NCBI GenBank assembly: GCA_029262675.1
Contig: JAJCYW010000009.1
Coordinates: 47,198 to 111,197 of the forward strand
DNA length: 64,000 nt
Direction: 5' to 3'
Source: Chloroflexota bacterium
GTDB taxonomy: Bacteria; Chloroflexota; Dehalococcoidia; DSTF01; RBG-16-68-14
Shown: positions 1,072-62,523 of the stretch, one piece after another
Layout: each line of letters opens with the position of its first letter
Numbering within the stretch: position 1 is the stretch's first letter
The notes under the pieces: model-generated
What the model was told of the DNA's origin: nothing
The model's database searches: none
What the model saw: the letters and a program-made list of their open reading frames with translations, nothing else
Program-made: the position numbers and the translations under genes

Positions 1072-1078
1072 CGGCTGA

Positions 1079-10538: not shown

Positions 10539-10541
10539 GGT

Positions 10542-26095: not shown

Positions 26096-26149
26096 GAGAA
26101 TGAGCATGCCATCGAACGTCAGTAGCACTATGGAGGACAGGTACTAGTC

Positions 26150-27172: not shown

Positions 27173-27287
27173 CGAGATCGGACGGCCAGCGGTCGTTCAA
27201 CTGCAAACAGGCGCGAGAGAACGGAATGGCACGGGATGCCCGTGGAATCAGGCCAAGGACGGCCGGACTGATGAACGGAGGAGAGAC

Positions 27288-33941: not shown

Positions 33942-34203
33942 ATCCGTTCCTCCGGGTGAATCATAGCGGCCATGAAGCGTTGCTAATTGGCCGGCGTCGC
34001 ATCGCTGAAACCTAGATCCGAACGCGGGACGCGGTTGGTTGCCGAAGCTTACTTGGCGCCGTATTGGGGCGTCAAGCTGAAAAGCGAATTGCGGCACGGT
34101 GTGGCATACTGGGCCTGAGCCGGTATTGTGCTTGGCATTCACGGGCAACGTGGCCCCGGGCCGGGCTGCTCGTATCATCTAAAGAAGGCTCAACGGAGGC
34201 ATC

Positions 34204-38688: not shown

Positions 38689-38731
38689 CACGGGCCAAGT
38701 AACATCTGCCCAGCGAACAGAGGAGGTTCCA

Positions 38732-40533: not shown

Positions 40534-41393
40534 CAGAAACCCGAACGTTCACGGACATGGAACAGATCATCACGACCAGTTCCCGTCTGATGGACGGCGA
40601 CAAGCTGTATTTCACTGCCATCGGAGGGCCGCCTCTGGTTGCGGTCCTGCTCGCGAAGCGCCTGCGCGCCCCGGAGCTGGCCTACATCGTGGAAGACGGG
40701 ACCATCGCCCCGCAGGTCTCGCTGCCAGCGCCACCGTTTCTGATCGCGGCCAGCGGCGCCAGCTATCGCGCCGCGGCGTGGGCGGACATGAACACCGTCA
40801 GCTTCCATGCCGGCCTGGGCTACATCGACTACGGCGTCCTGGCGGCGGTGCAGGTGGACGAGTATGGCAACTTCAACTCGACCTTCGTCGGTCCGGCGTA
40901 CGAAAGGCCGGCGCGCCGCTTCGGCGGCCCCGGCGGCGCGAACGAGATCGCCTCGCTCTGTTGGCGGACGATCTTGATGACGCGCCAGCAGGGACGCAAG
41001 TTCGTCAAGAAGCTGGATTTCATGTCGTCGCCGGGCTTTCTGGACGGCAGCGCCGGCGCCCGCGAACGGGCCGGCCTCCCTGCGGATACCGGGCCCTGGC
41101 GCGTCGTGACGGAGATGGCCGTGTTCGACTTCGACGAGGAGACGCGGCGTATTCGTCTGAAGGCACTGGCACCTTGGGCGACGGTCGACGACGTGATCGC
41201 CGAGATGGAGTTTGAGCCCATGATCGGTCCTTCGCTGGAGAGCATCGAGGTACCCAGCGAGGAGGAGCTATCCGTGCTTCGGGCAGAAGTTGACACGACG
41301 GGCCGGACCGTGCGAGGCTGCTGGATCACGGTCGAACTCGATGGCGAGAATGCACGCCTCGTGGAGCAGGAGACCTCAGCCGAGGGGGCATAG
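40530..41393 (+). CDS. CoA-transferase family I, subunit B (GctB/IpdB-like)
   Basis: ATGA overlap with subunit A. ...YFTAIGGPPLVAVLLAKRL... and ...GGPGGANEIA..., the subunit-B pattern. Confidence 0.65.
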   Translation: MTETRTFTDMEQIITTSSRLMDGDKLYFTAIGGPPLVAVLLAKRLRAPELAYIVEDGTIAPQVSLPAPPFLIAASGASYRAAAWADMNTVSFHAGLGYIDYGVLAAVQVDEYGNFNSTFVGPAYERPARRFGGPGGANEIASLCWRTILMTRQQGRKFVKKLDFMSSPGFLDGSAGARERAGLPADTGPWRVVTEMAVFDFDEETRRIRLKALAPWATVDDVIAEMEFEPMIGPSLESIEVPSEEELSVLRAEVDTTGRTVRGCWITVELDGENARLVEQETSAEGA

Positions 41394-41463
41394 CACAGTG
41401 GCAGAACAGCCAGTCTATCAGGCCCGCGCAGCGCACGGCCCCGGCCGTCGCCGGGCAAGTCGC

Positions 41464-44322: not shown

Positions 44323-45515
44323 AGCTCCTCGGCCGCTCTGAGAGAGACCACCTCGTTCGTTCCGTCCATGATCTGTAGGAGCTTGGCGTCGCGATAGAAT
44401 TTCTCGACCGGGTTCTCCTTGGAGATGCCGTAGCCTCCGAACACCTGGATCATATCGGCCGTTACCTGCATCGCCATGTCGCTCGCGAAGGTGCGGGCCG
44501 CCATGGCGGTCGGGAGGTGAGGCTTGCCCGTGCTCAGCAGCCACGAGGACTTCCAGAGCAGGGCGCGTGCGGCTTCGATTTGGCGGAAGGCGTTGAAGAG
44601 CGTCATCTTGACCACCTGGTGGTCGAAGATTACGGTGTCTCCCTGTACGCGTTCCTTCGCGTAGGCGAGTGCCTCTTCGTAGGCCGCGCGAGCTACGCCC
44701 ACGGCCAGCGTGCCAACGGCGGTGTTCCCGCCGGTGACAATGCGCTCGATCAGCATCTTGTAGGCGGGCCCGCCGGGCATGACGAGAAACTCCGCCGGGA
44801 TCCTGACGTCGTCGAAGAAGACCTCGCCCTGGTTGAGCGTCCGGAGGCCGAGCTTGTTCAGCGGCTTGCCGCGCGACATGCCCGGCAGATCGCCAGGGAT
44901 AGCGAAGGTCGCTGTGCTCTCCATGCCGTCGCCGTTTCCCACGTGGACCATGAGAAGGAAGGCGTCGGCCATCCAGCCGTTGCTCACGAACGCCGACTTC
45001 TGGCCGTTCACGACGTAGTCGTCGCCGTCTCTCACGGCGTTCGCCTCCATATGAATGGAGGGCTGGCCGAACTGGAAGAGGTCGGACCCGTGCTGCGGCT
45101 CGGTGATCGCCCACGCTCCTCCGTGCTCGCCCTTCGTGTCGTTCACGAACGCGTCTAGGTACTCGGCATAGAACGGGTGTCTGTCCTTGGCCGCCGCCGC
45201 GCTGCCCGCGATCATGGGAGCGACCAGCAGATGGCTGGCAAATCCGGCATCGCCCACCGCCAGCTCTTCCTGCACGATCGTGCTCGTCATGGCAGGCGCT
45301 CCCAGACCTCCGATATCGCGACCAAGCATCATTTTGTGGAAGCCAATCTCGTATGCTCGGGATAGTACGCGCCGCATGGTGTCGCTAGTGTAGGCTGCTT
45401 CGGGGTCCTGCATCAGATCGAGCTCCGCCGCTGCTGGGCGCAACTCCTTTTGCGCGAACTCACGTGTCATGTCGCGGATTTTCTCAATTTCCTCGGGTAG
45501 GGCGAAATCTACCAC
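44319..45515 (-). CDS. acyl-CoA dehydrogenase
   Basis: ACAD-like N-terminal (F.LPEE....R...REFA..E), middle and C-terminal domains with ...YRDAKLLQI..GTNEV. Confidence 0.85.
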   Translation of the reverse strand: MVDFALPEEIEKIRDMTREFAQKELRPAAAELDLMQDPEAAYTSDTMRRVLSRAYEIGFHKMMLGRDIGGLGAPAMTSTIVQEELAVGDAGFASHLLVAPMIAGSAAAAKDRHPFYAEYLDAFVNDTKGEHGGAWAITEPQHGSDLFQFGQPSIHMEANAVRDGDDYVVNGQKSAFVSNGWMADAFLLMVHVGNGDGMESTATFAIPGDLPGMSRGKPLNKLGLRTLNQGEVFFDDVRIPAEFLVMPGGPAYKMLIERIVTGGNTAVGTLAVGVARAAYEEALAYAKERVQGDTVIFDHQVVKMTLFNAFRQIEAARALLWKSSWLLSTGKPHLPTAMAARTFASDMAMQVTADMIQVFGGYGISKENPVEKFYRDAKLLQIMDGTNEVVSLRAAEEL

Positions 45516-45919: not shown

Positions 45920-46543
45920 ATGAACGGGAAACGAGTATACTTCGGTGCCGCTGGGGCGTTGTCTTTTCTGCTGATATTGGTGTTGTTCGCCGCTGCCTGC
46001 GGCGGCGGTGACGAAGAGGCGGATCCGACGGCTACGGCGCCAGCAGGAGGGGATCCGACTGCCACGAAAACCACACTGGGCGAGCCGACAGACCCGCCTG
46101 CGGATCCGACAGACCCGCCTGCGGATCCGACAGACGCGCCCGCGGAGCCGACAGATGTGCCTGCGGACCCGACAGTTGTGCCTACGGTGCCAGTGATTTC
46201 GGATACGACGGTCGATGTGACGTTGACGGAGTTCGTTCTCGATCCGTCCGCCAACGCGGCGCCTGCTGGAATCGTTAGGTTCAACGTGAGCAGCGACGGT
46301 GCAATTTTCCACAACCTCAAGGTTATTGAGACGGACCTCGCTCCCAACGCACTGCCGACCGACGATACCATATTCTCGGTGGACGAGGAGCAAGTGGACG
46401 TCGTTGCCACTACGGCAGACCTTAATCCCGGCGAGCAGGAAACGCTCAGCGTCGAATTGGCTGCCGGCAGCTACGTGCTCATCTGCAACGTTCCAGGGGG
46501 ACATTACCAAGGGGGTATGACGGCAGCATTCACCGTCGAATAG
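45920..46543 (+). CDS. cupredoxin-domain lipoprotein with Pro/Asp/Thr tandem repeats
   Basis: Lipobox LFAAACGGG. Repeats PTDPPADPTDPPADPTDAPAEPTDVPADPT encoded by 24-bp tandem DNA repeats (~46078-46170). Type-1 copper ligands FHN ... C-x5-H-x4-M (LICNVPGGHYQGGM). Confidence 0.65.
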   Translation: MNGKRVYFGAAGALSFLLILVLFAAACGGGDEEADPTATAPAGGDPTATKTTLGEPTDPPADPTDPPADPTDAPAEPTDVPADPTVVPTVPVISDTTVDVTLTEFVLDPSANAAPAGIVRFNVSSDGAIFHNLKVIETDLAPNALPTDDTIFSVDEEQVDVVATTADLNPGEQETLSVELAAGSYVLICNVPGGHYQGGMTAAFTVE

Positions 46544-46897: not shown

Positions 46898-47143
46898 ATG
46901 GAGAAGTTACGAGTTCCGGTGACGCTGGCCACTACGGCCTGCGGGACGATGCTCGCGCGGACGCTGGCCCCGCACCCGGTCTATGCCGGCGACGAGAGTC
47001 GGGACCGGGTGCTGGGTGGCGCGGGCACCGGCGTCCTGCTGTTTGCGCTGGTTCTGCTCGCGGCAGTCGGCGCGTTCGCCGCGGGTATCCTCTGGCGGGA
47101 GCGTCAGGACGGGGATACGCCTGACAGCGAACAGCTATACTAG
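46898..47143 (+). CDS. possible small single-TM protein upstream of the GMC oxidoreductase (speculative)
   Basis: 81-aa ORF with one hydrophobic helix (VLLFALVLLAAVGAFAAGILW). No recognisable homology. Confidence 0.2.
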   Translation: MEKLRVPVTLATTACGTMLARTLAPHPVYAGDESRDRVLGGAGTGVLLFALVLLAAVGAFAAGILWRERQDGDTPDSEQLY

Positions 47144-47174
47144 TTCGGCCCGACCGGCTAGAGGGAGGCGGAAC

Positions 47175-48689
47175 ATGCATTACGATGTCATCGTCGTCGG
47201 CGCCGGAGCGTCCGGGGCGGTTACAGCCGCCCGCGTCTCGGAAGACGCGGCGCGCTCGGTGCTGCTGCTGGATGCCGGCCCGTACTATCGAACCGCATCG
47301 CAGACGCCCGCCGACCTGCTGAACGGCAACGACAACTCCTATTTCGCCCATGATTGGGGATACGAGGTAACGGCGAACGTCGCCGGTCGGGTCGTGCCGC
47401 TGCCGGCCGGGCGCGTCGTCGGCGGTTCTTCCGCCGTGAACACGGCCATCGCCCTGAGGGGGACGCCTGAGGACTACGATGGCTGGGCAGCGCTCGGCAA
47501 CGACGAGTGGTCATGGGATAAGGTGCTGCCGTATTTCCGCCGCCTGGAGCACGATCTCGATTTCGACGACGATAACCACGGCCAAGACGGGCCTATCCCC
47601 GTGCGCCGTCATACAGAGGACGAGCTGGTGCCCGTGCAGGCGGCCTTCGTCCGGGCTATGCGGGCGCTTGGCTACGCGGAAACGTCCGACAACAACGATC
47701 CGCAGTCGACGGGGCTCGGCTTTCATCCGATGAACAAGCTGGACGGCCGCAGGATGAGCGTCGCCATCTGCTACCTAGAGCCGGCGCGAAAGCGGCCAAA
47801 TCTCACCATCATGGGAGACTGCCACGTCCGGCGGATCGTCTTCGACGGCGATCAGGCGACAGGCCTTGAAGTGGAGGGCGACGCCGGCATGGAGACGATT
47901 ACGGGCGATCGCATCGTGATCTCCTGCGGCGCCATTGGTACGCCTGCGCTTCTCATGCGCTCCGGCATCGGGCCTGCGGACCACCTGCGCGAACTCGACA
48001 TTGACGTGGTGCGGGACCTGCCGGGTGTTGGTGACAACCTGGACGACCATCCGATGCTCGGCGCGACGTTCATTGCCAAGGAGGGGATGCTAGAGAGATC
48101 CGACCCTGTTGTGCAGGTCACGTATCGATACACGTCGAGCGATGACGAAGAGCGAAACGACATGCAACTCATGCCGGTTTCCCAGATCCCAACGCGCTCA
48201 GGCGGCTTCGTCTACGCAATCGGAAGCGTCATCTACCTCCAGAAGTCTAGAGGGCGGCTCACGCTGACGTCGGCGGACCCCCGCATCCCACCGCACGTCG
48301 ACGAGCGCTTCCTCGAAGCTGACGAGGACGTCCGGCGCCTGGTGGAAGGCCTGCGCATGGCATTGGACGTGGGCTCTCATCCAGCGTTCGATGAGCTGTC
48401 AGAAGGCCTGAGATTTCCCGACGCGGCGGTCGTGCTGGATGACGATGCGCTGGCGGAGTGGTGCAAGAGGGTTGCGTCGAGCGGCTTCCATCCGAGCTGC
48501 ACGGCGATGATGGCGCCCGCGGACGATCCCATGGGGGTTGTCGACCAGCACCTGCGAGTGCGCGGGATCGATGGTCTGCTCGTGGCCGATGCCTCGGTGA
48601 TGCCAAGGTGCCCGCGAGCCAATATCCACCTCACGTCCGTGATGATCGGTGAACGCGCCGGCGAGTGGCTGCGCGAGGGTGTCGTCTAG
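47175..48689 (+). CDS. GMC-family FAD oxidoreductase (choline dehydrogenase / cholesterol oxidase superfamily)
   Basis: Start at MHYDVIVVGAGASG with a GAGGGAGG RBS. GMC N-terminal ADP-binding fold, internal ...GGSSAVN..., and the C-terminal His/Asn active-site region. Confidence 0.8.
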   Translation: MHYDVIVVGAGASGAVTAARVSEDAARSVLLLDAGPYYRTASQTPADLLNGNDNSYFAHDWGYEVTANVAGRVVPLPAGRVVGGSSAVNTAIALRGTPEDYDGWAALGNDEWSWDKVLPYFRRLEHDLDFDDDNHGQDGPIPVRRHTEDELVPVQAAFVRAMRALGYAETSDNNDPQSTGLGFHPMNKLDGRRMSVAICYLEPARKRPNLTIMGDCHVRRIVFDGDQATGLEVEGDAGMETITGDRIVISCGAIGTPALLMRSGIGPADHLRELDIDVVRDLPGVGDNLDDHPMLGATFIAKEGMLERSDPVVQVTYRYTSSDDEERNDMQLMPVSQIPTRSGGFVYAIGSVIYLQKSRGRLTLTSADPRIPPHVDERFLEADEDVRRLVEGLRMALDVGSHPAFDELSEGLRFPDAAVVLDDDALAEWCKRVASSGFHPSCTAMMAPADDPMGVVDQHLRVRGIDGLLVADASVMPRCPRANIHLTSVMIGERAGEWLREGVV

Positions 48690-48758
48690 GGCAGGTGGGG
48701 AGGCCCGATCGCCACGCATGACGAAGAAGCCTGTCCTGATTCGTTGTTAGGGACACCT

Positions 48759-48899
48759 GGCCTTATGGGCCAAGACAAATTAGCGGTCACCCATCGATTA
48801 GGTAGAAGAGGAAGTCAAAACGGCGAACTCGCCACGAAGGCCTACGATGCAGGTTGGCCCAAACTACCCTAAATGACGTGCCATTTGGCCCTTTATGGC
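48759..48899. promoter_or_regulatory. AT-rich promoter region of the Mo-enzyme operon with repeated TTGGCCC / GGGCCAA half-sites (candidate operator)
   Basis: GGCCTTATGGGCCAA at 48759-48773. TTGGCCCAAAC at ~48854. TTGGCCCTTTATGGC at 48885-48899. GC content is visibly lower than the surroundings. Confidence 0.2.
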
Positions 48900-48970
48900 T
48901 TAACTTAGTAAGCGCTAAATTAAGAACCGATAGCCATGGAGCCATCGCGACTATCTGAGGGGGTTATGCC

Positions 48971-50557
48971 TTGAGCGATGCCACATTCGACGCAGTCATT
49001 ATCGGGGCAGGCCACAACGGGCTTTCGTTAGGTACCTACCTATCGAAGTGTGGCTGGGATGTCGCGATATTCGAGAAGCGCACTGAAGAGGGCGGCGGCC
49101 TCTGTACGGAAGAGCTGACGCGCCCCGGGTTTCTTCACAACGTTCACTGCAACTACCACACGCTGGTCGGCGTCTGTCCCGTCTATGACGATTTGGACCT
49201 GTACGATCATGGCCTGAAGTACGTCCAGCCGGAAGTGCAGATGGGGAGCGTCTTCCGTGACGGCACGGCGCTGACCGTACATACGGACATCGACAAGACG
49301 TGCGCGTCGTTTGCGCGTTTCTCGGAGAAGGACGCTGAGACGTTCCGCCGGCTGCACGATGAGGTGAAGGGCTACCTGGACCTGATCCTGAGTACGCTGA
49401 TGTACTCGCCGCCCATCCCGTTGCTCGATATTACGAAGGCGCTTGTCGTCTGGAAAATCACCGACAAGGCGGAGTTCCTGAGCGTCCATCTGCGCAACAT
49501 GACGATCAACGAGTTCCTGGACGAGCACTTCGAGAGCGACAAGATCAAGGCGATGCTTGCTTTCCAGGCAGCCATTTCCGGCTACGCGACGGACCTAAGA
49601 GGGCTCGCCGTGTCGTTCCCGCTCTTGGTTGGCAAAATGGATAATTGGCACGTCTGCGTCGGCGGTTCTCATCAACTCGCGCACTCGCTCTGGGAGGCGT
49701 TCGCGCATGCGGGCGGGAGCGTCTTCCTGAACACGCCGGTTGCAGGCATCGTGACGGACAACGGCAAGGCGACCGGCGTTCGCCTCTACGACGGCAGCGA
49801 GGTGAAGGCCCGGCACGCCGTCATCAGCACGATCGACGTGGAGCAGACGTTCCTGAAGATGTTGCCGCGCGAGAAGCTGGACCCGGAGCTCGTGAAGCAT
49901 GTGGAAGACGTCTCGCACATCGATTGGTCATATTACAGCGTTCACCTGGCCATGAGCGAAGCTCCTCAGTACGAGGCGGCATCATTCGACCCGGACATCC
50001 AGAATGCTTGGGTACTCAATGCCGGCTATGAGTCGCTGGATGACCTGAGTCAGGACTGGAAGACCGTCCGCGCGGGCAAGCTGGCCGATCCCAAGCCGAA
50101 CTGCGCCGTGAACTCGCTGTTCGATCCGACGGACTCGCCCGATGGCTCGTTTACGGGCCTGATGCGCCAGTTCGCCCCGATCGAGATCGGGAGCGGCGGT
50201 ATGGAGGCGTGGGACGAGATGGCTGGCCCATACGGAGAGCGCCTCATCGACGCGTGGACGTCGTACGCTCCGAACGTGAGAGGCGCGACGATCGAATGGC
50301 AGTCATACACGCCTCTGGACATCTCGCGCCGGATGGTGAACATGGTCCGCGGCGACTGGATGGGCGGCGTCATCGCGCTCGACAACCTGCTGACGGAGCG
50401 GCCAACTCCGGAGCTATCGCAGTACAAGACGCCGTTCGAGGGCCTGTACATGGCTGGGGCCACGCAGCATCCGCACGGATTCATCACGTTCGCGCCGGGC
50501 TACAACGCGCTGCAGGTAATCGCAGAAGATCACGGATTGGAGCGCTGGTGGCAATGA
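48971..50557 (+). CDS. FAD/NAD(P)-dependent oxidoreductase of the phytoene-desaturase (CrtI-like) family, copy 1
   Basis: TTG start with a GAGGGGG RBS. FDAVIIGAGHNGLSLGTYLSKCG (Rossmann GxGxxG) and ...EKRTEEGGGLCTEEL. About 528 aa. Confidence 0.7.
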   Translation: MSDATFDAVIIGAGHNGLSLGTYLSKCGWDVAIFEKRTEEGGGLCTEELTRPGFLHNVHCNYHTLVGVCPVYDDLDLYDHGLKYVQPEVQMGSVFRDGTALTVHTDIDKTCASFARFSEKDAETFRRLHDEVKGYLDLILSTLMYSPPIPLLDITKALVVWKITDKAEFLSVHLRNMTINEFLDEHFESDKIKAMLAFQAAISGYATDLRGLAVSFPLLVGKMDNWHVCVGGSHQLAHSLWEAFAHAGGSVFLNTPVAGIVTDNGKATGVRLYDGSEVKARHAVISTIDVEQTFLKMLPREKLDPELVKHVEDVSHIDWSYYSVHLAMSEAPQYEAASFDPDIQNAWVLNAGYESLDDLSQDWKTVRAGKLADPKPNCAVNSLFDPTDSPDGSFTGLMRQFAPIEIGSGGMEAWDEMAGPYGERLIDAWTSYAPNVRGATIEWQSYTPLDISRRMVNMVRGDWMGGVIALDNLLTERPTPELSQYKTPFEGLYMAGATQHPHGFITFAPGYNALQVIAEDHGLERWWQ

Positions 50558-51081
50558 CGGGCTCTGTTTCGACAAACGGGACCGTGCCGATTCGGGCGGT
50601 GGCAGGCGACGAAGCCAGTGGGCTGGCCAACATCATTACGCAGTACCTGGAACAGCTCTTGGGCGACTCGGCGGAGAAGCGCGCCGCGGCGTCGTCGCTG
50701 CGGGGCCGTCTTGGCATGAACGCGCGCGAGAGCGACGTGGCGGTGACGATCGTGTTCGCGGACGGCGCCATCGAAATCGAAGAAGGCCTGCAGGAGCCGG
50801 ACGCCGTGATCGGCGGCGAATTGGAATTCCTAATGCACATGATGGCGGGCCGGGCTAACCCGGCGTGGGAGATGCTGAACCGGAAGATGACGATCCGGCC
50901 AGGACGGCGGCCGCTCTTCGCATACCAGGCCTACAGCCTGATGCGGCTGCCGGGCGTACATGTGTGGAACGGGGTGCCGAGGCCGCCCACAGGCGTTCTG
51001 GTGGGCGCGGCGGCCGCGCTGGTGATTGGACTATCGATCATGTACGCCCGACGCAGGGCACCAGGAGGTGACGATGCCTGA
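50554..51081 (+). CDS. SCP2 (sterol-carrier-protein-2)-like lipid-binding protein with C-terminal TM helix
   Basis: ATGA overlap with the upstream gene. ...VAVTIVFADGAIEIEEG...DAVIGGELEFLMHMMAGRANPAWEMLNRKMTIRPGR is SCP2-like. C-terminal GVLVGAAAALVIGLSIMYA helix. Confidence 0.5.
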   Translation: MTGSVSTNGTVPIRAVAGDEASGLANIITQYLEQLLGDSAEKRAAASSLRGRLGMNARESDVAVTIVFADGAIEIEEGLQEPDAVIGGELEFLMHMMAGRANPAWEMLNRKMTIRPGRRPLFAYQAYSLMRLPGVHVWNGVPRPPTGVLVGAAAALVIGLSIMYARRRAPGGDDA

Positions 51082-52687
51082 GGCAACGTATGATGCAGTG
51101 ATCATCGGCGCGGGCCACAACGGACTCACGCTGGCGGCCTACCTCGCGAGGTCGGGGTTGTCCGTTGGGATCTTCGAGCGCAGGCACGAGGACGGCGGTG
51201 GTGTAAACACGGAGGAGGCGACCGTTCCCGGCTTCCACCACAACCTTCATGCTCAGTACATGGAGTTCATCGACTACATGCCGGTCTACCACGACTTCGA
51301 GCTGGAGAAGTGGGGCTCTCGGATGATCAAACCAGACACCCAACTGGGTATCACGTTCGCTGACGGGAGGCCGCCGCTCATTATCTACCGGCCCGATCCT
51401 GAGCTGGACAAGAAGACCCACAAGAGCATCTCCGAGCACTCCAAGCACGACGCGGACACGTGGCTGGAACTGAAGACGAAGATGATGGAAAGAGAGTTCC
51501 AGATAGCAGCCACGCTCTACAGCCCGGCGGAGGCCGAGGACGACGCCGAGGCGTCGGCTGCCATGATGAGCGCGGGCCTTAGCCTCTGGCAGGACCTGGG
51601 CCTAACGGCGAACGATATCGGCAAGGCGCCGAAGGTGCTGATCGATCGCTTCTTCGAATCGACGGAGATGCGGGCGTTGCTCTACCGCCAGTGCATCGAG
51701 TGGGGCGCAAACGTACACGCCGGCAACGGGTACGGCTTCCTGGTCTCCGTCCTCTGGCTCAGCGCGATCCACTATATGTCCGCCGGCGGCACGCATACGT
51801 TGGCGCACGCCATGGCGAACGCTGCGTTGAAGGCGGGCGCGTGCATGCGTTTCAGCAGCCCCGTGGTCAAGATCCTCTTTGAAGGCGGGCGCGCCTCGGG
51901 CATCCAGCTCAAGGACGGAACGAAGGTCAATGCGACGAAACTCGTCGCTTCGAACGTCGATCCCAGGCAGACGTTCGTGGACTTCATCGGCGAAGAGAAC
52001 CTGGAGCCGTTCCGCAAGGAGCGGTTGGCCGGCTGGCACTTCGGTCCGGAGCACGTCCTCGGCACGCCGTCGTTCGCGCTTCACGAAGCGCCGAACTACA
52101 AGTCCGCGAAATGGAACGAGGACATCAACCGCTGCTTCTACACCGTCGTTGGGTTCGAGACAGCGGAGCAAGTGTCCAACTACATCCTGCAGGCATACGG
52201 CGGCCAGATACCGGACCGGCCGGGCGCCGGCACGTGGGTCAACTCGCTGTGGGATCCCACGCAGGCGCCGGCGGGCAAGCACGTGATGAACGGCTGGTTC
52301 TTCTTCCCCAAGGCCTCATGCCTCAGCGAAGCAGAGTGGGATGAGGTACGTGCTACGTACAATGACAAGTTCCTGAAGCTGTGGGAGGAGTACGCTCCGA
52401 ACATGACGCGCAAGAACGTCATCGCGGACCGGCTGTATACGGCCTTCGACATCGAGAAGAAGATGTCGATGCCGGAGGGTGATTTCTCGCAGGGCCGCGC
52501 CGGCGGTATCGGCGTTGGTGTGGCTCGTGAGTACCAGTACCGGACGGAGTTTCCGGGCCTATACCTCTGCGGTCCGTCCGCCGGAGGTGGGGGCGTCAGT
52601 TCCGCCCCGGGCTACGGCTCGTTCAAAGTCATCTGCAAAGACCTCGACCTGCCAAAGATCTGGCAACAGGGGGGTCGGAACTACTAA
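51074..52687 (+). CDS. FAD/NAD(P)-dependent oxidoreductase of the phytoene-desaturase (CrtI-like) family, copy 2
   Basis: CCAGGAGG RBS. YDAVIIGAGHNGLTLAAYLARSG. Colinear paralog of 48971..50557. Confidence 0.7.
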   Translation: MPEATYDAVIIGAGHNGLTLAAYLARSGLSVGIFERRHEDGGGVNTEEATVPGFHHNLHAQYMEFIDYMPVYHDFELEKWGSRMIKPDTQLGITFADGRPPLIIYRPDPELDKKTHKSISEHSKHDADTWLELKTKMMEREFQIAATLYSPAEAEDDAEASAAMMSAGLSLWQDLGLTANDIGKAPKVLIDRFFESTEMRALLYRQCIEWGANVHAGNGYGFLVSVLWLSAIHYMSAGGTHTLAHAMANAALKAGACMRFSSPVVKILFEGGRASGIQLKDGTKVNATKLVASNVDPRQTFVDFIGEENLEPFRKERLAGWHFGPEHVLGTPSFALHEAPNYKSAKWNEDINRCFYTVVGFETAEQVSNYILQAYGGQIPDRPGAGTWVNSLWDPTQAPAGKHVMNGWFFFPKASCLSEAEWDEVRATYNDKFLKLWEEYAPNMTRKNVIADRLYTAFDIEKKMSMPEGDFSQGRAGGIGVGVAREYQYRTEFPGLYLCGPSAGGGGVSSAPGYGSFKVICKDLDLPKIWQQGGRNY

Positions 52688-52697
52688 GGAGTGCGCC

Positions 52698-53168
52698 ATG
52701 GCCGAGATCTACACCACCGCCTGGTACGACAGCATGAAGGATCTCCTCAACAAGAGCGATGAGGTCACGAAGAACGCACCGCAGGGTGTCTGGCGCATCC
52801 TGGCGGAGATTCGCGGCGATGGCACATCACCCTACATCGGCGGCGATGATGTCAAACGCTTCTCGATAGTGCTCGACGATGGCAAATGCGCGAGCTACCA
52901 GGAGCTGACAGAGGCGCCGCCGCGGAAGGACTTCGAATTCATCCTGGAGATGCCCGCCGGCCTCTTCGAGCGTATCGTCGCCAACCAGGCAGATCCGCTT
53001 GAGGCCGGGCTAAAGGGTGACGTGAAGATCGTCGGCGACATGCGGGTGCTGATCCAGAACGCGGAGCTAGTGAACGTCCTCTCTGAGATCTACCAGCGCG
53101 AGATCGAAACGGAGTGGCCTAACGGTACCCCTCCGTACGAGGCAGCGACTGCTGGAGGTGCGGCATGA
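52698..53168 (+). CDS. SCP2-domain protein
   Basis: AAGGAG RBS. ...FSIVLDDGKCASYQELTE...FEFILEMPAGLFERIVANQADPLEAGLKGDVKIVGDMRVLIQNAELVNVL is an SCP2 fold signature. Confidence 0.55.
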   Translation: MAEIYTTAWYDSMKDLLNKSDEVTKNAPQGVWRILAEIRGDGTSPYIGGDDVKRFSIVLDDGKCASYQELTEAPPRKDFEFILEMPAGLFERIVANQADPLEAGLKGDVKIVGDMRVLIQNAELVNVLSEIYQREIETEWPNGTPPYEAATAGGAA

Positions 53169-55945
53169 CCGAAGCAGGCCTATTGCTACACGCCCTCGCC
53201 GAAAAGAAGGGAGGCGGCAGCGAATCCTATGGCTCCTGGGAGGATCTGTATCGCGGGAAATGGACGTGGGACCGCGTCGTCAAAGGTACGTGCAACCGGG
53301 CTGACTGCATCGCAGCTTGCTCGTTGGACCTGTTCGTTAAGGACGGCATCGTGTGGCGAGAAGAGCAGAACGCCATCTACGACCAGACCAACGAGGCGGT
53401 GCCAGACTTCAACCCACGTGGCTGCCAGAAGGGCATCTGCTACAGCGACCTGATGTACGATGCGTCTCGCATCAAGTACCCGCTGCGAAGAGTTGGCGAG
53501 CGTGGCTCCGGAAAGTGGGAGCGCATCTCATGGGATGAGGCGCTAACGGAGATCTCCGACAAGGTCCTTGATGTCTGCAAGGAGGATGGCCCGGAGAGCA
53601 TCATCTACGACTTCGGCACAACGAACATCGACTTCGGACCTGGAACGCCCGCCGAGCAGCAACTGACCCGCCTGATCGGCACGACGTCGCTCGATGAGTG
53701 GGCCGGCGTGGGCGACCTTCCCATGGGCGCCATCCAGACCTGGGGCCTCTTCAACGCTGATGGGACCTCCGACGATTGGTTCAACGCCGATACGATCTTG
53801 GTCTGGCTGGGCAATCCCGTCTACACGCGGGTGCCGGACGTGCACTTTATGTTCGAGGCGCGCTACAAGGGCGCCGAAGTGGTAACGATCGCGCCTGATT
53901 ACAACGCCACCGTGGTGCATTCCGACCTCTGGGTGAACCCGCGCGTCGGAACGGACGCCGCTCTGGCGCTTGCGATGTGCAACGTGATCGTGGAGGAGGG
54001 GCTGCAGAAGGATCGCTACGTGCAGGAACAGACCGACCTGCCGTTCCTGGTACGCGAAGACGCCGGCCGCTTCCTCCGCCAATCCGACATCGCCAAGGAT
54101 GGCAAGGATGACGTTTTTTACGTCTGGGATCTAGCCACCAAATCGCTACAAGAAGCGCCAGGGACGATGGGACAGCCGGATGCGTCGCTCGACCTGGGTG
54201 ACCTCGACCCCGCGATGGAGGGCGATTTCGAGGTAGAGCTGCTGGACGGCAGGAAGGTGACCGTACGACCCGCCTTCCTGGCGCTCAAGAAACGTTTGGA
54301 CGAATACACGCCGGAGCGCGCCGCAGAGATCACAGGCGTCGCCGCCAGCACGATCCGGCGTTTGGCCCGACGGGTAGCTGAGAGTCCCGCCACGCTGATT
54401 TTCTGCTCGTGGGGGGCCTGCAAGCACTACCACATGGACCTCGTGCAGCGATCCATCATCCTGCTGCTCGCGCTCACCGGCAACACGGGTAAGCGCGGCG
54501 CCGGTATGCGCATCGGCGCTTGGTGGAACATGTCGCTCAGCTACGACAAGGCTGGCGTCGGCGCACTTGCGGCGGCCGGCGCCCCAGCAGAGCGGCCCAA
54601 GGTCCGCGACCTTGAGAACTTGATGAAGACGCTGATGAAGGCAAACTCGTCGATCAGCCCGACGATGCCGTTCCTCTATAAGCACGACAAGGGCTACGCG
54701 AAGCTGGTCGACACGCCCGGCTATCACGACCCCGATCTGAAGCGCCCCATTAGCGAGTACATGCAGGAGGCGTTCGATAAGGACTGGATGCCTGTCTATC
54801 CCAGGGACGGCAAGTCGCCGCGGGTCTTCCTCTACACGGGTATGAACCCGCTGCGCCGCTGGCCGGCCCCCGATGCCATTCGCGAGAATCTGTGGGCGAA
54901 TTTCGAGTTGATCGTGACATGGGATTTCCGCATGTCCAGCTCCGGCATGTACTCGGACATCATCCTGCCCGCGGCAGGATGGCACGAGAAGTCCGGCGTC
55001 AAGTTCACCCAGAGCTATGTGCCGTACATCTGTGTTGGTGAGCAGGCCGTGGAGCCGCTCTACGAGTCAAAGAACGAGTTCGACATCATGGCCAAGCTGG
55101 CGGCTACGCTGGAGCGGCGGGCCAAAGAGCGGGAAGAAGCCCCGTACAAGGATGTGTTCGGTAACGAGCACGATCCAACAGACATCGCCCGCCTCTGGAG
55201 CTTGGACGGTGAGTTCGGCGAGGGAGACGCGGAAAAGGCGCTGGACGTCCAATTCGAGCTCTCAGATCCGGTTGGAGATGCTACGTGGGCGGAGGCGGCT
55301 GAGAAGGGGGCGGTGCGCGTGACGTCGACGGGAGGCTATGGGCCGATCACCGCCATCACGAATGAAGTTGAGGAAGGTGAGACGCTCTACCCGTTCGCGT
55401 GGTTTGTCAGGGACAAGGAGTCTTGGCCCACGCTCACCGGACGCCAGCAGTTCTACATCGACCATCCGTGGTTCCTAGAGGCCGGCGAAGAGTTGCCCAC
55501 GCACAAGGAGGCCCCTCCCGCTGGCGGCGATTACCCGCTGCGGATGACAGGTGGACATACGCGTTGGAGCATCCACGCTATCTGGAGGAGCAATCGCACG
55601 CTCCTTCGACTCCAACGCGGCGAGCCCGTGATGTACATCAGCACGCAGGACGCGGCGGCGCGCGGCCTGGATGACCATGACCTGGCCTTGGTCCACAACG
55701 ATGTAGGCGGGTTCAAGGTGAGAGTGAAGCTGGCGCCCAGTGTTCAGCCGGGCCAGGTGGTCATGTATCACGCCTGGGAGCCGTACCAGTTCGAGCAGTG
55801 GTCGGGCCAGCAGGCTGTTAACCCATCGCCGCTGAAGCCCCTCCACCTAGTGGGGGACTACGTCCAGCTTTCGTATCGGTTTGCCCTGGCCCAACCCAGC
55901 AACATTTCTCGGGCGATGACGGTCGAACTGACAAAGGTGGAGTGA
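53165..55945 (+). CDS. molybdopterin (bis-MGD) oxidoreductase alpha subunit, type II DMSO-reductase family (NarG/EbdA/C25DH-like), paralog 1; no Tat signal
   Basis: N-terminal ...WTWDRVVKGTCNRADCIAACSLDLFVKDGIVWREEQ...NPRGCQKGICYSDLMY..RIKYPLRRVGERGSGKWERISWDEAL parallels the NarG FS0-cluster/N-domain. No RR motif. 926 aa. ATGA overlap with the SCP2 gene. Confidence 0.8.
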   Translation: MTEAGLLLHALAEKKGGGSESYGSWEDLYRGKWTWDRVVKGTCNRADCIAACSLDLFVKDGIVWREEQNAIYDQTNEAVPDFNPRGCQKGICYSDLMYDASRIKYPLRRVGERGSGKWERISWDEALTEISDKVLDVCKEDGPESIIYDFGTTNIDFGPGTPAEQQLTRLIGTTSLDEWAGVGDLPMGAIQTWGLFNADGTSDDWFNADTILVWLGNPVYTRVPDVHFMFEARYKGAEVVTIAPDYNATVVHSDLWVNPRVGTDAALALAMCNVIVEEGLQKDRYVQEQTDLPFLVREDAGRFLRQSDIAKDGKDDVFYVWDLATKSLQEAPGTMGQPDASLDLGDLDPAMEGDFEVELLDGRKVTVRPAFLALKKRLDEYTPERAAEITGVAASTIRRLARRVAESPATLIFCSWGACKHYHMDLVQRSIILLLALTGNTGKRGAGMRIGAWWNMSLSYDKAGVGALAAAGAPAERPKVRDLENLMKTLMKANSSISPTMPFLYKHDKGYAKLVDTPGYHDPDLKRPISEYMQEAFDKDWMPVYPRDGKSPRVFLYTGMNPLRRWPAPDAIRENLWANFELIVTWDFRMSSSGMYSDIILPAAGWHEKSGVKFTQSYVPYICVGEQAVEPLYESKNEFDIMAKLAATLERRAKEREEAPYKDVFGNEHDPTDIARLWSLDGEFGEGDAEKALDVQFELSDPVGDATWAEAAEKGAVRVTSTGGYGPITAITNEVEEGETLYPFAWFVRDKESWPTLTGRQQFYIDHPWFLEAGEELPTHKEAPPAGGDYPLRMTGGHTRWSIHAIWRSNRTLLRLQRGEPVMYISTQDAAARGLDDHDLALVHNDVGGFKVRVKLAPSVQPGQVVMYHAWEPYQFEQWSGQQAVNPSPLKPLHLVGDYVQLSYRFALAQPSNISRAMTVELTKVE

Positions 55946-55961
55946 GAAGCGAGGTGCAGTC

Positions 55962-56612
55962 ATGCGCGTAGGTCGAGTTGATACAAGAGATGAGGAGCTG
56001 CTGAGCCCTGAGTCGACGGCCTGGCAGGAAGCCGCCGTCAATGAGGTTGTGTTGTCGCCGACACCCCTCGAGTTGCAGCCTACCGATTACATTCGCGTTT
56101 CCCGAAACGGCCGTCCGTACGGCGCGGTTTCGAGCATGAGGGTGAGCGCCCTGCACAACGGCGACAGTGTGTTCTTCCACTTGGTTTGGCAGGATGACTC
56201 TGAAGATCGGGCGATCAAGGACATCAACCAGTTCGTGGATGGCGCCGCCGTGATGTTCCCGATAGTCGAGGATGCGCCGCTCATTGGCATGGGAATCCAA
56301 GGCAAGCCAGTGAACGTATGGATGTGGCGCGCCGACTGGGAACGGCCGAAGAACGTCGCTGCGGAAGGGATGGGGACGACTCAGCGCCGGGACGACCCGG
56401 CACTTTCGTCCGCGGTGCGTCATGCCGATGGGAATTGGGATCTGATCGTTGGCAGATCGCTCGAAGAAAGAGACGCCCCTCCGGGGACGATCGCACTGGC
56501 GCCCGGAGCGGCGTCGAAGATCGGATTCGCAGTCTGGCAGGGTTCCGAACAGGAGCGAGCCGGTCTGAAGGCATTCTCTCCCGCCTGGCAAGATCTAGAG
56601 CTTGATGCGTAG
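55962..56612 (+). CDS. EbdC/DdhC-like heme-b gamma subunit (EB_dh domain), without signal peptide
   Basis: GAGGTG RBS. ...MRVSALHNGDSVFFHLVWQDDSEDRAIKDINQFVDGAAVMFP...GKPVNVWMWRADWE matches the ethylbenzene-dehydrogenase gamma-subunit fold pattern. N-terminus is hydrophilic. Confidence 0.6.
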   Translation: MRVGRVDTRDEELLSPESTAWQEAAVNEVVLSPTPLELQPTDYIRVSRNGRPYGAVSSMRVSALHNGDSVFFHLVWQDDSEDRAIKDINQFVDGAAVMFPIVEDAPLIGMGIQGKPVNVWMWRADWERPKNVAAEGMGTTQRRDDPALSSAVRHADGNWDLIVGRSLEERDAPPGTIALAPGAASKIGFAVWQGSEQERAGLKAFSPAWQDLELDA

Positions 56613-56630
56613 CGGAAAGTAGGGCTCGCC

Positions 56631-57683
56631 ATGACTGAACGACAACTCGCGTTCGTCTTCGACCTCAACAAGTGCTTGGGCTGTCAGACGTGCACTATTT
56701 CGTGCAAGACGCTTTGGACGGACCAGCCGGGCATGGAATACATGTGGTGGAACATCGTCAATACGATGCCCGGCCGGGGCACGCCGCGCGATCGGGACCA
56801 AATGGGCGGCGGTTTCGATGCTGAAGGGCGCGCGCAAGCGGGCGTGCTGCCGAGCGCAAAAGACTTCGGCGAGGCCTGGGACTTCAACTACGATGAGGTC
56901 TTTTACGAAGGGAAGGGCCAATCGGCACACCTCCACCCGCGCAGTCCAAGCGCGAACGGCAAGGACGAAGCACCAGAGTGGGGGCCGAACTGGGATGAGG
57001 ATCAGGGCGCGGGCGATTACCCGAACAGCTACTATTTCTACCTACCGACGATTTGCATGCACTGCACGGACCCGGCCTGCCTGGCCGCGTGCCCGCGTCA
57101 GGCGATCTCCAAGCGGGAGGAGGACGGCATCGTCCTCATCGACGAAGACCGCTGCGACGGATACCGATTCTGCATGGAGGCCTGTCCGTACAAGCGCATC
57201 TACTTCAACCCGGACCGTTTCATCTCACAGAAGTGTGTCATGTGCTTCGCGAGGCTGGAACAGGGCGTCGCGCCCGCCTGCGTTCGCCAGTGTCCCGGGC
57301 GCGTTCGCCACTTCGGCTATCTCGACGATGAGGAGAGCGACATCTTTAAGCTCGTCAAGACGTGGAAGGTGGCGATCCCGTTGCACCCTGAGTTCGGCAC
57401 ACAGCCGAACGTGTACTATGTGCCGCCGCTCGCCCCGCCGCGCTTCGACGAGAACGGTGAGATCGATGAAGAGAACCCTCGCATCCCCATGGACTACCTG
57501 CGCTCGCTCTTCGGCCCGGCGGTGGATCAGTCGCTCGCGACGCTCAAGCTGGAGATGGAGAAGACGCGGCAGGGAGAGAAGTCAGAGCTGACGGATATTC
57601 TCATCGCTTACAAGTGGCAGAACATGTTCATTCCGTTTGTGGAGGACCCGGGTGAATTGAGCCGCCCGGCGCCTAAGTCATGA
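56631..57683 (+). CDS. 4Fe-4S/3Fe-4S beta subunit (NarH/EbdB-like)
   Basis: Four Cys clusters: CLGCQTCTISC, CMHCTDPACLAACP, CDGYRFCMEACP, CVMCFARLEQGVAPACVRQCP. About 350 aa. Confidence 0.85.
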   Translation: MTERQLAFVFDLNKCLGCQTCTISCKTLWTDQPGMEYMWWNIVNTMPGRGTPRDRDQMGGGFDAEGRAQAGVLPSAKDFGEAWDFNYDEVFYEGKGQSAHLHPRSPSANGKDEAPEWGPNWDEDQGAGDYPNSYYFYLPTICMHCTDPACLAACPRQAISKREEDGIVLIDEDRCDGYRFCMEACPYKRIYFNPDRFISQKCVMCFARLEQGVAPACVRQCPGRVRHFGYLDDEESDIFKLVKTWKVAIPLHPEFGTQPNVYYVPPLAPPRFDENGEIDEENPRIPMDYLRSLFGPAVDQSLATLKLEMEKTRQGEKSELTDILIAYKWQNMFIPFVEDPGELSRPAPKS

Positions 57684-58357
57684 TGCAAATCGAATCGCTC
57701 GGCACGCAGGAAGGAATCGTCGCGGCCGCCCACAGCCGCCTCTATCGGCTGCTTGCGGACGGCATCTTGTTCCCGGATCGTGACGCTTTCGATGAGATCA
57801 AGGCGGGGCGCGTTCGCGACTACGTTGTGGAGACGTGCCGGGAGTTGCCGTACGCTCTGGAGCCAGCGTTCGATGGGCTGGTGGCTTCGGGTGAGTACGT
57901 GGACTTTCAGTCCGAGTTCCTCAGGGTATTCGAAGTCGGCCAAGGCATGCCGCCATGCCCGCTCTACAGCGGGATCTATAGAGGCGGGAGAAAGGCCGTG
58001 ATGGAAGAGTTGGCGCGCTTCTATTCCTACTTCGGCCTGTCGATCGAACACGGCTCAGGGGAGCTGCCAGATCACTTGGCGACCGAGCTGGAATTCATGC
58101 ACTTCCTCGCATTCAAGGAGTTGACCGCCCTTCACCAGGAGAAGGACCCGATGCCGTACCGGCGTGCCCAGGCAGATTTTCTGGAGCGTCAGCTTGTATC
58201 GTGGGTGCCTTCGCTGGAGAAGAGACTACAGGGAGCGGCACCGCCTCCGTTCTATACAGCGCTTGTTTGGCTGACCAACGCGTTGGCTCGCGAGCACCTT
58301 GCGTTGCTCAATGGATCAGTCGATCGGAATGCCACGATTTCATTGGATGCAGTGTGA
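57680..58357 (+). CDS. TorD/NarJ/EbdD-family assembly chaperone (delta)
   Basis: ATGA overlap with beta. The all-helical ~225 aa protein in the position and size of NarJ/EbdD. Identification is largely by context. Confidence 0.55.
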
Positions 58358-59481
58358 TGACCGCAGCCATCTGCGTTGTTGGGCGAAAGAACAGCGGCAA
58401 GACGACCCTCATCGAACGTCTCTTGCCAGAACTGCGGGCTCGCGGCCGAAAGGTGGCGACGCTCAAGCACGATGCGCACGACTTCGAGATCGACCTACCG
58501 GGGAAGGACACGTGGCGTCACCGCCAGGCGGGGAGCACCACCACTGTGATTTCGTCCTCTTCGAAGGTTGCCATGGTGCGATCGACCGATCGCGAGACGC
58601 CGTTGGATGAGTTGCTGCGGCTAGTAGACGACTCATGCGATCTGGTGCTCATCGAAGGGCTGCGGCGCAGCGCGTGTCCGAAGATCCTTGTTCATCGACC
58701 GGAAGTCGGTGGCCCGCCAGGCGTTCTTGGTGAGGTCTGGGCCGTCGTCGGAGACGAGACGCCGGAGACGAATCGAAGCGCCACGCGGATCGCGGCGAAC
58801 GACGTCAAGGCGCTTGCCGATCTTATCGAGGAGCGGCTCCTGGGTGGAAGCGTCCAGGCTCCTGCCTGGAACCTGCCGGCGTTGTTGGCCGAGGCAAGCC
58901 GCCATCATGGCCATATCTGCCCCGGACAGGTGCTGGGAGTGCGGATGGCGATCTTGGGATGCGAGCGGCTGGGGATCTACGAACCGAAGTCATCGAAGCG
59001 CCTCATTACATTTGTCGAGACGGATCGATGCGGGACGGACGCGGTGCAGACCGTGACGGGCTGCACGCTCGGCAAGCGGACGCTCAAGTTCGTTGACTAT
59101 GGCAAGCTTGCGGCGACGTTCCTCGATTCGGAGACAGGCCGCGCTGTGCGGATCGTCGCCAGGGAGAGCGCGCGCGACGCCGCGCTACAGTTTGCGCCGG
59201 ACGAGATAGACGCGCATGCTGCGCAGTTGAGAGCGTACAAGGCGCTGCCGGAGGACGTCCTGTTCAGCGTGCAGGACGTACGAGCTACGTTGGCTGAGAC
59301 GGAGCTACCTGGCCGGCCTCACGGTCGCGTCGTCTGCGCAGAGTGCGACGAGGGAGTCAACAACGGTCGCGAGTTGGCAGTCGCTGGAAGAACGTTGTGC
59401 CGCGCGTGCGCCGGCGTGCCGTACTACCAGGAAGCTGAAGACATCGTAACAACACAGAAGCAGAAATCGGAAGCGCCGTAA
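58357..59481 (+). CDS. MobB (molybdopterin-guanine dinucleotide biosynthesis, P-loop) fused to an FmdE/FwdE-like Zn-binding domain
   Basis: N-terminus [22 protein letters not shown] (MobB Walker A). C-terminal half ...[16 protein letters not shown]... plus CAECDE...CRAC (FmdE-like with Zn-ribbon). The ATG overlaps the upstream stop. Confidence 0.65.
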
Positions 59482-59498
59482 GCGAATGGAGGGACACC

Positions 59499-62330: not shown

Positions 62331-62523
62331 GCAGCCGCGACGGGCAAGAGAATGGAAGAGAAACTACGCGGCCGGCGACGCTGGATGGTCGAGTCGCAGA
62401 TAGCACGCGAACGTACTGAATCGCCGGGTCGTGGGAACGGCGGCCCGCCGATCACCCGCCGGCGCTAGAGGTCGAACCGACGCAGCGTCCGCTCGGCGAG
62501 ACCTCAGCGCTCAAGGAGGCGCG

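Follow-up and report, generated by a model that had tools for sequence, protein, structure and literature searches.

Attack on inert isoprenoid chains without oxygen is known from very few cultured Betaproteobacteria, in which it concerns limonene (Castellaniella) and sterol side chains (Sterolibacterium). These two organisms hold the closest described relatives of the system treated here, a four-gene unit (A-S1-B-S2) that encodes two flavoproteins and two SCP2-fold proteins and lies immediately upstream of molybdenum (Mo) enzyme genes in a 64,000-nucleotide stretch of a Chloroflexota bacterium (contig JAJCYW010000009.1, positions 47,198 to 111,197 of the forward strand), which we call the window. 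In Sterolibacterium denitrificans delta-24-SD, a delta-24-steroid desaturase, is an alpha/beta enzyme formed by two phytoene-dehydrogenase-like paralogues related to the limonene dehydrogenase CtmAB (Zhan et al., J Biol Chem 2024, PMC11061730). Its subunits WP_067170564 (alpha) and WP_067170561 (beta) are encoded by the adjacent genes SDENChol_21262 and 21263, each of them carries flavin mononucleotide covalently bound to the histidine of the motif G-F-L/R-X-N/S-T/L-H-A, and the Mo-dependent steroid C26 dehydrogenase S26DH2 then hydroxylates their diene product at C26, the allylic carbon which the desaturation creates (PMC11061730).

CtmAB of Castellaniella defragrans is likewise heteromeric, its two subunits being paralogous flavoproteins of COG1233 (Petasch et al. 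2014, PMC4109377), for which a covalent flavin at the same His motif has been described (Puentes-Cala et al. 2018, as cited in PMC11061730). It hydroxylates limonene without oxygen at the allylic carbon, using the flavin alone (PMC4109377; PMC11061730), so that its reaction is a hydroxylation rather than a desaturation. In the ctm operon, ctmA and ctmB are adjacent and are followed by two small genes of unknown function, ctmC and ctmD, while a 2Fe-2S ferredoxin and a ferredoxin reductase (CtmE and CtmF) serve as partners of the enzyme (PMC4109377). Both the flavoenzyme family and its partnership with hydroxylases of the ethylbenzene dehydrogenase (EBDH) type are already known from this work of 2014-2024 on two Betaproteobacteria.

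The unit found in the window (Table 1) resembles delta-24-SD in that A and B are a paralogous pair in one operon, at 528 and 537 aa in keeping with the clade's subunit size of ~55-63 kDa, both with the flavin His motif and both associated with a Mo hydroxylase of the EBDH family. Unlike the adjacent desaturase genes of Sterolibacterium, those of A and B are separated by S1, and the hosts are uncultured Chloroflexota and members of other phyla. With CtmAB the likeness is drawn through the published description and the motif, and comprises the heteromer of paralogues, the flavin histidine and the allylic attack on an isoprenoid; the ctm operon, unlike the A-S1-B-S2 loci, has neither a Mo enzyme nor a recognised SCP2 protein. 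On balance we consider it somewhat probable that A, B and their dedicated SCP2 proteins constitute one heteromeric enzyme system that feeds a cytoplasmic Mo hydroxylase. The initial annotation of this DNA, made from the sequence alone, did not recognise the arrangement from characterised systems. The pairing of such a flavin enzyme with a Mo hydroxylase is in fact known, but the SCP2 partners and the layout with Mo enzymes devoid of a twin-arginine translocation (Tat) signal were not found described. No account of a cluster combining SCP2, CtmAB-like and EBDH-like proteins was met in the searchable literature, whose coverage leaves out most subscription journals. Three things were not met there: a distinct, widely distributed subfamily whose flavoprotein genes alternate with two dedicated SCP2 genes, the product of one often bearing a tail anchor; the association of this subfamily with EBDH-type enzymes that lack a Tat signal; and its spread over uncultured phyla.

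Table 1. Coordinates of the four-gene unit and of its neighbours in the window
Feature	Coordinates	Strand	Description
Acyl-CoA dehydrogenase (ACAD)	44319-45515	-	Pfam Acyl-CoA_dh N, M, C; beta-oxidation-type context
GMC-family flavin oxidoreductase	46983-48689	+	Pfam GMC_oxred_N, GMC_oxred_C; directly upstream of the unit
Intergenic region	48690-48970		281 bp, 5' of A; probable operon 5' boundary
A	48971-50557	+	528 aa, TTG start; flavoprotein of the CtmAB / delta-24-steroid-desaturase clade (phytoene-desaturase-like superfamily)
S1	50554-51081	+	175 aa, SCP2-fold; predicted C-terminal tail-anchor helix
B	51074-52687	+	537 aa, flavoprotein, paralogue of A
S2	52698-53168	+	156 aa, soluble, SCP2-fold; family narrow and well conserved
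Mo-alpha1	53165-55945	+	926 aa, EBDH-type (type II dimethyl sulfoxide (DMSO)-reductase family); Pfam Molybdopterin, Molydop_binding; no Tat leader
Gamma subunit (haem b)	55962-56612	+	Pfam EB_dh
Beta subunit (Fe-S)	56631-57683	+	Pfam Fer4_11
Delta-type chaperone (NarJ/EbdD-like)	57680-58357	+	Pfam Nitrate_red_del
MobB-FmdE-zinc-finger fusion	58354-59481	+	Pfam MobB, FmdE, zf-dskA_traR
Mo-alpha2	59499-62330	+	943 aa, EBDH-type; N-terminus MARKKASAKK, no RR motif
Mo-alpha3	62431-64000	+	EBDH-type, Pfam Molybdopterin; cut by the window end; Tat motif TRRRFLQG

The pair of ~530-aa flavoproteins and the two small SCP2 proteins that had been annotated at first are all borne out as open reading frames (ORFs) of the forward strand. 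Start codons were set by the N-termini conserved among homologues. Accordingly A begins with MSDATFDAVIIGAGHNG, in agreement with its homologues, B with the conserved MPEATYD rather than at an upstream TTG at 51026, and S2 with the conserved MAEIYT. Ribosome-binding sites precede the TTG of A (GAGGGGG) and the ATG of B (AGGAGG). The overlap is 4 nt between the stop of A and the start of S1 (ATGA), 8 nt between S1 and B, and 4 nt between the S2 stop and the Mo-alpha1 start; a gap of 10 nt, with an AAGGAG ribosome-binding site in it, lies between B and S2. The start/stop overlap at first ascribed to each flavoprotein and its SCP2 gene is thus found for A and S1 but not for B and S2. The GC content at the third codon position of the four genes is 0.81-0.83, against 0.41-0.44 at codon position 2, and the homologues of A fall into at least 120 protein clusters at 58-87% identity. 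Given this codon bias, the abundance of homologues and the conserved gene order described below, A, S1, B and S2 are real genes and not chance ORFs. Signal peptides were not seen in any of the four proteins by sequence inspection. A scan of the region upstream of A gave no sigma-70-like promoter and the terminator scan was likewise empty; an Rfam search, including one confined to that region, returned no match and no molybdenum-cofactor riboswitch.

The Pfam matches of A and B are Amino_oxidase, NAD_binding_8 and DAO, and the two proteins share 33% identity. In full-length blastp alignments A shows 30.8% identity to the beta subunit of delta-24-SD (224 bits, E 4e-71) and 29.1% to the alpha subunit (191 bits, E 7e-58), and B shows 27.9% and 29.2% identity to beta and alpha, respectively, at 160 bits each; the E-values of these alignments range from 1e-47 to 4e-71. 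The delta-24-SD sequences used were those of Table S2 of PMC11061730. Their flavin-binding histidines, His57 in alpha and His58 in beta, correspond in the alignment to His59 of A, in the motif PGFLHNVHC, and to His59 of B, in the motif PGFHHNLHA. This histidine is invariant across all 12 aligned A and B homologues, and the final position of the motif is C, A or S in the A family, not strictly A. A rough neighbour-joining tree placed A and B within a clade defined by the His motif, together with delta-24-SD alpha and beta and with archaeal tandem pairs. The CrtO-like proteins of cyanobacteria fell outside this clade, and so did further COG1233 pairs in tandem, for example from Haliea; neither group has the flavin His motif. 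By motif and tree, therefore, A and B are members of the covalent-flavin CtmAB / delta-24-SD clade, and not, as had been supposed, generic enzymes of the CrtI type, in which the FAD is non-covalent; each subunit is predicted to carry its flavin covalently on His59. Since A and B are closer to each other than to either subunit of delta-24-SD, they form a subfamily of their own and are not clear orthologues of alpha and beta.

Contigs were also scanned with sequence patterns and with a mixed A and B alignment. Among the matches listed were mostly distant COG1233 proteins (22-34% identity) without the His motif; neither Sterolibacterium nor Castellaniella was among them, and one of the patterns, [YF]D[AV][VI][IV]IGAG, was too generic. 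In the cyanobacterial CrtO-like proteins (loci L010 and L041) a cysteine occupies the position of the flavin histidine (PGFKFNLCA), which is possibly relevant to covalent flavin attachment in CrtO-type ketolases.

The identity of A and B as canonical carotenoid enzymes (CrtI, CrtD or CrtO) was tested and rejected, as their NCBIfam scores lie far under the curated cut-offs. The best match was the CrtO model NF045689, with 247 bits for A and 150 for B against a cut-off of 1000; the crtI_fam model TIGR02734 gave 82 and 61 bits against 238, and the CrtD models gave at most 61 bits against cut-offs of 500-580. Among PDB sequences the flavoproteins matched CrtD (4rep) and CrtI (4dgk). The genes for phytoene synthase and lycopene cyclase (crtB, crtY) were not found among the window ORFs scanned, and no gene of the carotenoid pathway was among the recurrent neighbours in related loci. 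Two findings that had been named in advance as fatal to the first interpretation, canonical CrtI/CrtD enzymes accompanied by crtB and crtY and small ORFs without SCP2 character, were consequently not made, as far as the scanned ORFs of the window reach for crtB and crtY.

The small proteins S1 and S2 both match the Pfam family SCP2 (PF02036), with 30.8 and 24.9 bits against a gathering score of 21.3. As these single-sequence scores are marginal, their relatives were tested as families, and an SCP2 match (E<=0.01) was obtained in 27 of 28 relatives of S1 and in 29 of 31 relatives of S2. The family profile of S1 matched the Thermus SCP2 structures 1wfr and 2cx7 in the PDB over nearly full length (E ~2e-4). 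The S2 profile found no significant SCP2 match among PDB sequences, with nanobody noise on top, and for this reason a fold search was used. The AlphaFold2 model of S2 has a mean predicted local distance difference test score (pLDDT) of 60, with 76-83 in its core, and the top 35 PDB matches retrieved with it by Foldseek are all of SCP2 fold, the best being 1wfr (E 9e-7, TM-scores ~0.5); liganded SCP2 domains and SCP2 domains of alkylsulfatases are among them. S1 and S2 are SCP2-fold proteins, as initially annotated, and the proposed check by domain models gave the expected families in A and B as well as in S1 and S2. The C-terminal transmembrane helix reported for one of the small proteins belongs to S1, whose C-terminus (GVLVGAAAALVIGLSIMYA) consists of a hydrophobic helix followed by basic residues, a tail-anchor pattern; a hydrophobic C-terminal segment is present in 36 of 63 S1 relatives. 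The S2 family is narrow, with 89 representatives at E<=1e-3 among 1.84 billion proteins.

SCP2 domains joined to enzymes, such as those of SCPx, MFE-2, the alkylsulfatases and UbiJ/UbiT, generally bind the hydrophobic substrate. UbiJ and UbiT of ubiquinone biosynthesis are small SCP2 proteins that bind a strongly hydrophobic isoprenoid substrate on behalf of soluble (flavo)enzymes, among them those of an O2-independent hydroxylation route. S1 and S2 would share this design idea in a catabolic context, which makes UbiJ/UbiT an analogy and not a family to which they belong: against the NCBIfam UbiT model S1 scored 19 bits (E 0.0014; cut-off 46.9) and S2 gave no match, and no ubi genes were seen in the window. 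The protein UbiT is treated in PMC6747719.

In order to follow the unit in other genomes, loci were gathered by exact-protein look-up and by a metagenome scan that yielded 80 loci with an A identity of 60-90%; their ORFs were scored with hidden Markov models built from the window proteins. The 80 metagenome loci are the nearest relatives of A and include some near-duplicates, so non-redundant counts were made after collapsing at 95% identity. S1 lies directly 3' of A in 74 of 74 loci, and 47 of 50 loci (42 of 44 non-redundant), from several phyla, have the four genes in the order A-S1-B-S2. The named relatives belong to Chloroflexota, Binataceae, Acidobacteria, Myxococcota and one metagenome-assembled genome of Abyssobacteria. 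The three exceptions to the order (L156, L157 and L158) are rearranged and retain B, and the first two retain S2 too; A and B occur together in every locus with sufficient sequence. A recent duplication of a module was considered and rejected, since A and B are only 33% identical and the hhalign signal between S1 and S2 is too weak (35 aligned columns, P 0.011), the C-terminal SCP2 signature being all that they have in common. The description of the genes as tandem duplicated modules is in this respect misleading: to judge from divergence and shared order, the duplication is a tandem one only in a very old sense and the four genes are inherited as one unit. Moreover, as the characterised relatives work as alpha/beta heteromers, one enzyme complex is likelier than two parallel modules.

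Two kinds of departure from the common layout were observed. In L156 and L157 (about 350-13900), where A is 60% identical, the genes for A, S1 and an ACAD stand on one strand and those for B, S2 and the Mo subunits alpha, beta, gamma and delta run divergently, with a Mo-alpha ORF of ~1200 aa. In four other loci (L099, 1-4319; L104, 1-5103; L105, 2618-8008; L108, 2537-7840) three extra COG1233 genes lie directly upstream of A-S1-B-S2. The first two are of the delta-24-SD alpha type and of the beta type, the third codes for another Amino_oxidase protein, and between them stands an ORF of 118 aa that falls in no known family; such genes suggest multi-step flavin chemistry on one substrate.

The unit is followed by genes for Mo enzymes of the EBDH type. 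The best PDB match of Mo-alpha1 (585 bits) and Mo-alpha2 (748 bits) is the alpha subunit of EBDH (2ivf). With the alpha model TIGR03479, Mo-alpha1 scored 952 and a second alpha 916, against a cut-off of 985, and the alignment of Mo-alpha3 to this model begins at residue 58; with the EbdA equivalog model the alpha subunits scored 632 and 807, against a cut-off of 2000. The gamma subunit matched the NCBIfam EbdC-like model with 175 bits and TIGR03477 with 165.6 (cut-off 169.85), and the beta subunit exceeded the cut-off of TIGR03478 (516.7 against 480.7). The alpha, beta, gamma and delta subunits are hence of the same type II DMSO-reductase subfamily as EbdABC(D). The gene order here is alpha-gamma-beta-delta, unlike the alpha-beta-gamma-delta of ebdABCD, and the presence of a MobB-FmdE fusion gene is a further difference. 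This fusion is also found in 16 related loci; it probably acts as a molybdenum-cofactor maturation or insertion factor, and it may be dedicated to the insertion of the Mo/W cofactor into cytoplasmic EBDH-like enzymes. Three EBDH-type alpha genes stand in a row with one visible set of gamma, beta and delta genes (53165-64000), and Mo-alpha1 has a C-x4-C-x3-C arrangement where Mo-alpha2 has an FS0 motif of the H-x3-C type.

The steroid C25/C26 dehydrogenases S25DH and S26DH bear Tat signals, and their assigned location is the periplasm. In Mo-alpha1 and Mo-alpha2, in contrast, the sequence starts no earlier than where mature EBDH begins and an RR motif is absent, and none of 25 full-length alpha subunits linked to the module has a twin-arginine motif, unlike S25DH, S26DH and EBDH. 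From the lack of a Tat signal these enzymes are predicted to be cytoplasmic. A search of gene neighbourhoods for the four-gene module beside Mo-enzyme operons, which had been suggested at the outset, found that the module recurs and that about two thirds of the loci have EBDH-type genes: these lie within ~10 kb in 18 of the 26 loci with wide context (15 of 23 non-redundant). They occur in three arrangements, namely directly after S2, after S2 as beta-alpha-alpha, and divergently upstream of A. Because the linkage is kept across all three, it appears to be functional rather than merely inherited.

We propose by analogy with CtmAB and delta-24-SD that A and B would be the two subunits of a heteromeric covalent-flavin dehydrogenase, oxidising an allylic C-H bond of a hydrophobic, isoprenoid-type substrate without O2, either by desaturation or by water-dependent hydroxylation. 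S1, whose tail would anchor it to the cytoplasmic membrane (a feature of the window protein and of roughly half its relatives), would draw the lipid out from there, and S2, soluble and more conserved, would present it to the flavoenzyme and/or pass the product on. The newly allylic carbon could then be hydroxylated with water by the co-transcribed EBDH-type Mo enzyme, and the GMC oxidoreductase, ACAD, SCPx-type thiolase, CoA-transferase and enoyl-CoA hydratase encoded nearby may lead the product into beta-oxidation. The sequence of SCP2 delivery, (de)saturation by the flavoprotein and hydroxylation by the Mo enzyme was put forward in the initial annotation. Its last two steps have a precedent in delta-24-SD and S26DH2 and agree with the Mo linkage; the part given to the SCP2 proteins, that is their association and lipid binding, we infer, as we do the covalent flavinylation, the A/B heteromer, the order of the reactions and the class of substrate.

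Several points weigh against this single heteromeric system. The identity of A and B to the characterised enzymes is only ~30%, neither is a clear orthologue of alpha or beta and the type of reaction could differ, and the model of S2 is of moderate confidence only. Fusions of a flavoprotein with SCP2, which would have attested their physical association, were seen neither among the 89 S2 representatives nor among the A homologues, all of ~530 aa. The neighbours do not name the substrate, as no steroid-ring, carotenoid or terpene genes were seen, and about one third of the loci are without Mo genes inside 10 kb. In addition, purified delta-24-SD consists of two ~60-kDa subunits only and the paper makes no mention of SCP2 (PMC11061730), so that SCP2 partners are not needed in the known enzymes.

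Four other explanations were weighed against the proposed heteromeric system. It is unlikely, in our opinion, that A with S1 and B with S2 are two independent modules of flavoenzyme and carrier acting in different steps, for instance successive desaturations or a desaturation and an isomerisation. Each flavoprotein gene does have its own SCP2 gene behind it, the opposite strands of A-S1 and B-S2-Mo in L156 and L157 imply that the pairs can be transcribed separately, and alpha2 or beta2 homodimers have been proposed as possible catalytic units in delta-24-SD (Zhan et al., PMC11061730). However, A and B co-occur wherever there is enough sequence and a locus with a single pair was never seen, the 8-nt overlap of S1 and B suggests translational coupling, and both characterised relatives were isolated as alpha/beta complexes. 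We hold it to be similarly improbable that the flavoenzyme is itself a hydroxylase that attacks an allylic methyl group with water, as CtmAB does on limonene by flavin alone, and that the Mo enzymes work on another position or another substrate. The loci that have no nearby Mo genes would be understood in this way, and the best NCBIfam match of A and B is a model of the ketolase CrtO, an enzyme which installs oxygen at an allylic ring carbon. Speaking for the coupled reaction are the EBDH-type linkage maintained in three arrangements, the overlap of the S2 stop with the Mo-alpha1 start, and the fact that the sole characterised pairing of such a flavoenzyme with a Mo enzyme is that of a desaturase followed by a hydroxylase.

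We regard it as decidedly unlikely that S1 and S2 are not lipid carriers but structural or assembly subunits in which the SCP2 fold serves another end, be it flavinylation, docking at the membrane or a link to an electron acceptor. The family of S2 is narrow and highly conserved, with only 89 representatives, and retrieved no generic SCP2 sequences in searches of PDB sequences, a pattern that would fit a protein-protein interaction, and the electron acceptor of delta-24-SD is unknown (PMC11061730). Nevertheless, the general affinity of enzyme-attached SCP2 domains for hydrophobic substrates and the presence of liganded and alkylsulfatase SCP2 domains among the fold matches argue for lipid binding, and a tail-anchored SCP2 protein would naturally be placed at the membrane, where a lipid substrate resides. 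Finally, a canonical part in carotenoid biosynthesis or modification, or a UbiT-like part in lipid or quinone biosynthesis, is very improbable. It is true that the best NCBIfam models and PDB sequence matches are carotenoid enzymes and that S1 weakly matches the SCP2 protein UbiT, but all the scores are far below the cut-offs, the neighbours are catabolic, phytoene synthase and cyclase are missing among the window ORFs scanned, and the cyanobacterial CrtO-like proteins examined lack the covalent-flavin His motif.

Around the unit, the genes that recur by clustering across loci are only regulators, genes of beta-oxidation and a molybdate transporter. ACAD, SCPx-type thiolase, enoyl-CoA hydratase, CoA-transferase and GMC oxidoreductase are encoded near it in the window and the related loci taken together; the ACAD cluster is found in 12 related loci, and a GMC gene stands upstream of A also in L001. 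The GMC oxidoreductase is a candidate for an alcohol-oxidising step, as inferred from its family and position. Its score with the MftG model TIGR03970 (394 bits) slightly exceeds the cut-off of 387, and other mycofactocin genes were not seen in the window. SCPx-type thiolase (Thiolase_C_1) and nitroreductase-family genes lie beside the unit in the window (37468-40533) and in L002 (4739-9639), and a candidate ORF of 207 aa between the ACAD and GMC genes (45920-46543) has no Pfam match.

Farther upstream, at ~15-20 kb, the window encodes an APH-family phosphotransferase (29359-30366), a luciferase-like oxidoreductase on the reverse strand (32664-34178) and a cytochrome P450 (34204-35379); in L006 an APH gene (14525-15535) comes directly after S2. 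The 25-hydroxysteroid kinase of Sterolibacterium, a 'phosphotransferase', was enriched together with proteins resembling phytoene dehydrogenase and luciferase (PMC8449060); it is encoded by SDENChol_21286, whose number is close to those of the desaturase genes 21262 and 21263. Large repeat proteins, predicted to be surface-bound or secreted and apparently unrelated to the unit, are encoded at 18739-29351 and 41290-44322. Two of them (590 and 733 aa) are FG-GAP proteins, one of 1010 aa is NHL/teneurin-like and has a cupredoxin domain, and an ORF of 1256 aa is a further candidate; sulfotransferase genes are found among them.

A wider proposal, which we put forward tentatively and regard as possible rather than probable, is that A-S1-B-S2 and the EBDH-type enzymes without Tat signal form a widespread and hitherto unrecognised cytoplasmic pathway for the O2-free activation of membrane isoprenoid lipids, with a lipid relay made of two SCP2 proteins. 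If this is true, sterol side chains, hopanoids, squalene, carotenoids, polyprenols and archaeal lipids would be candidate substrates, and the hosts would be uncultured Chloroflexota, Binatia, Acidobacteriota, Myxococcota and Abyssobacteria-like lineages of the subsurface and soil. The relay would channel a lipid extracted from the membrane between a radical covalent-flavin desaturase and a Mo hydroxylase, in place of the alternation between periplasm and cytoplasm of Sterolibacterium. To judge from the dedicated SCP2 pair and from the missing Tat signals, the problem of gripping a substrate that is insoluble in water may be solved differently here. As the subfamily is highly conserved (60-90% identity) across metagenomes and several phyla and is usually linked to EBDH-type genes, similar chemistry may be frequent in anoxic sediments, in aquifers and in peat, all of them places in which isoprenoids such as sterols and hopanoids persist. 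The system is moreover compact, with four genes and one Mo operon, which makes it practical to express, and it could give biocatalysts for the regioselective, O2-independent functionalisation of lipids.

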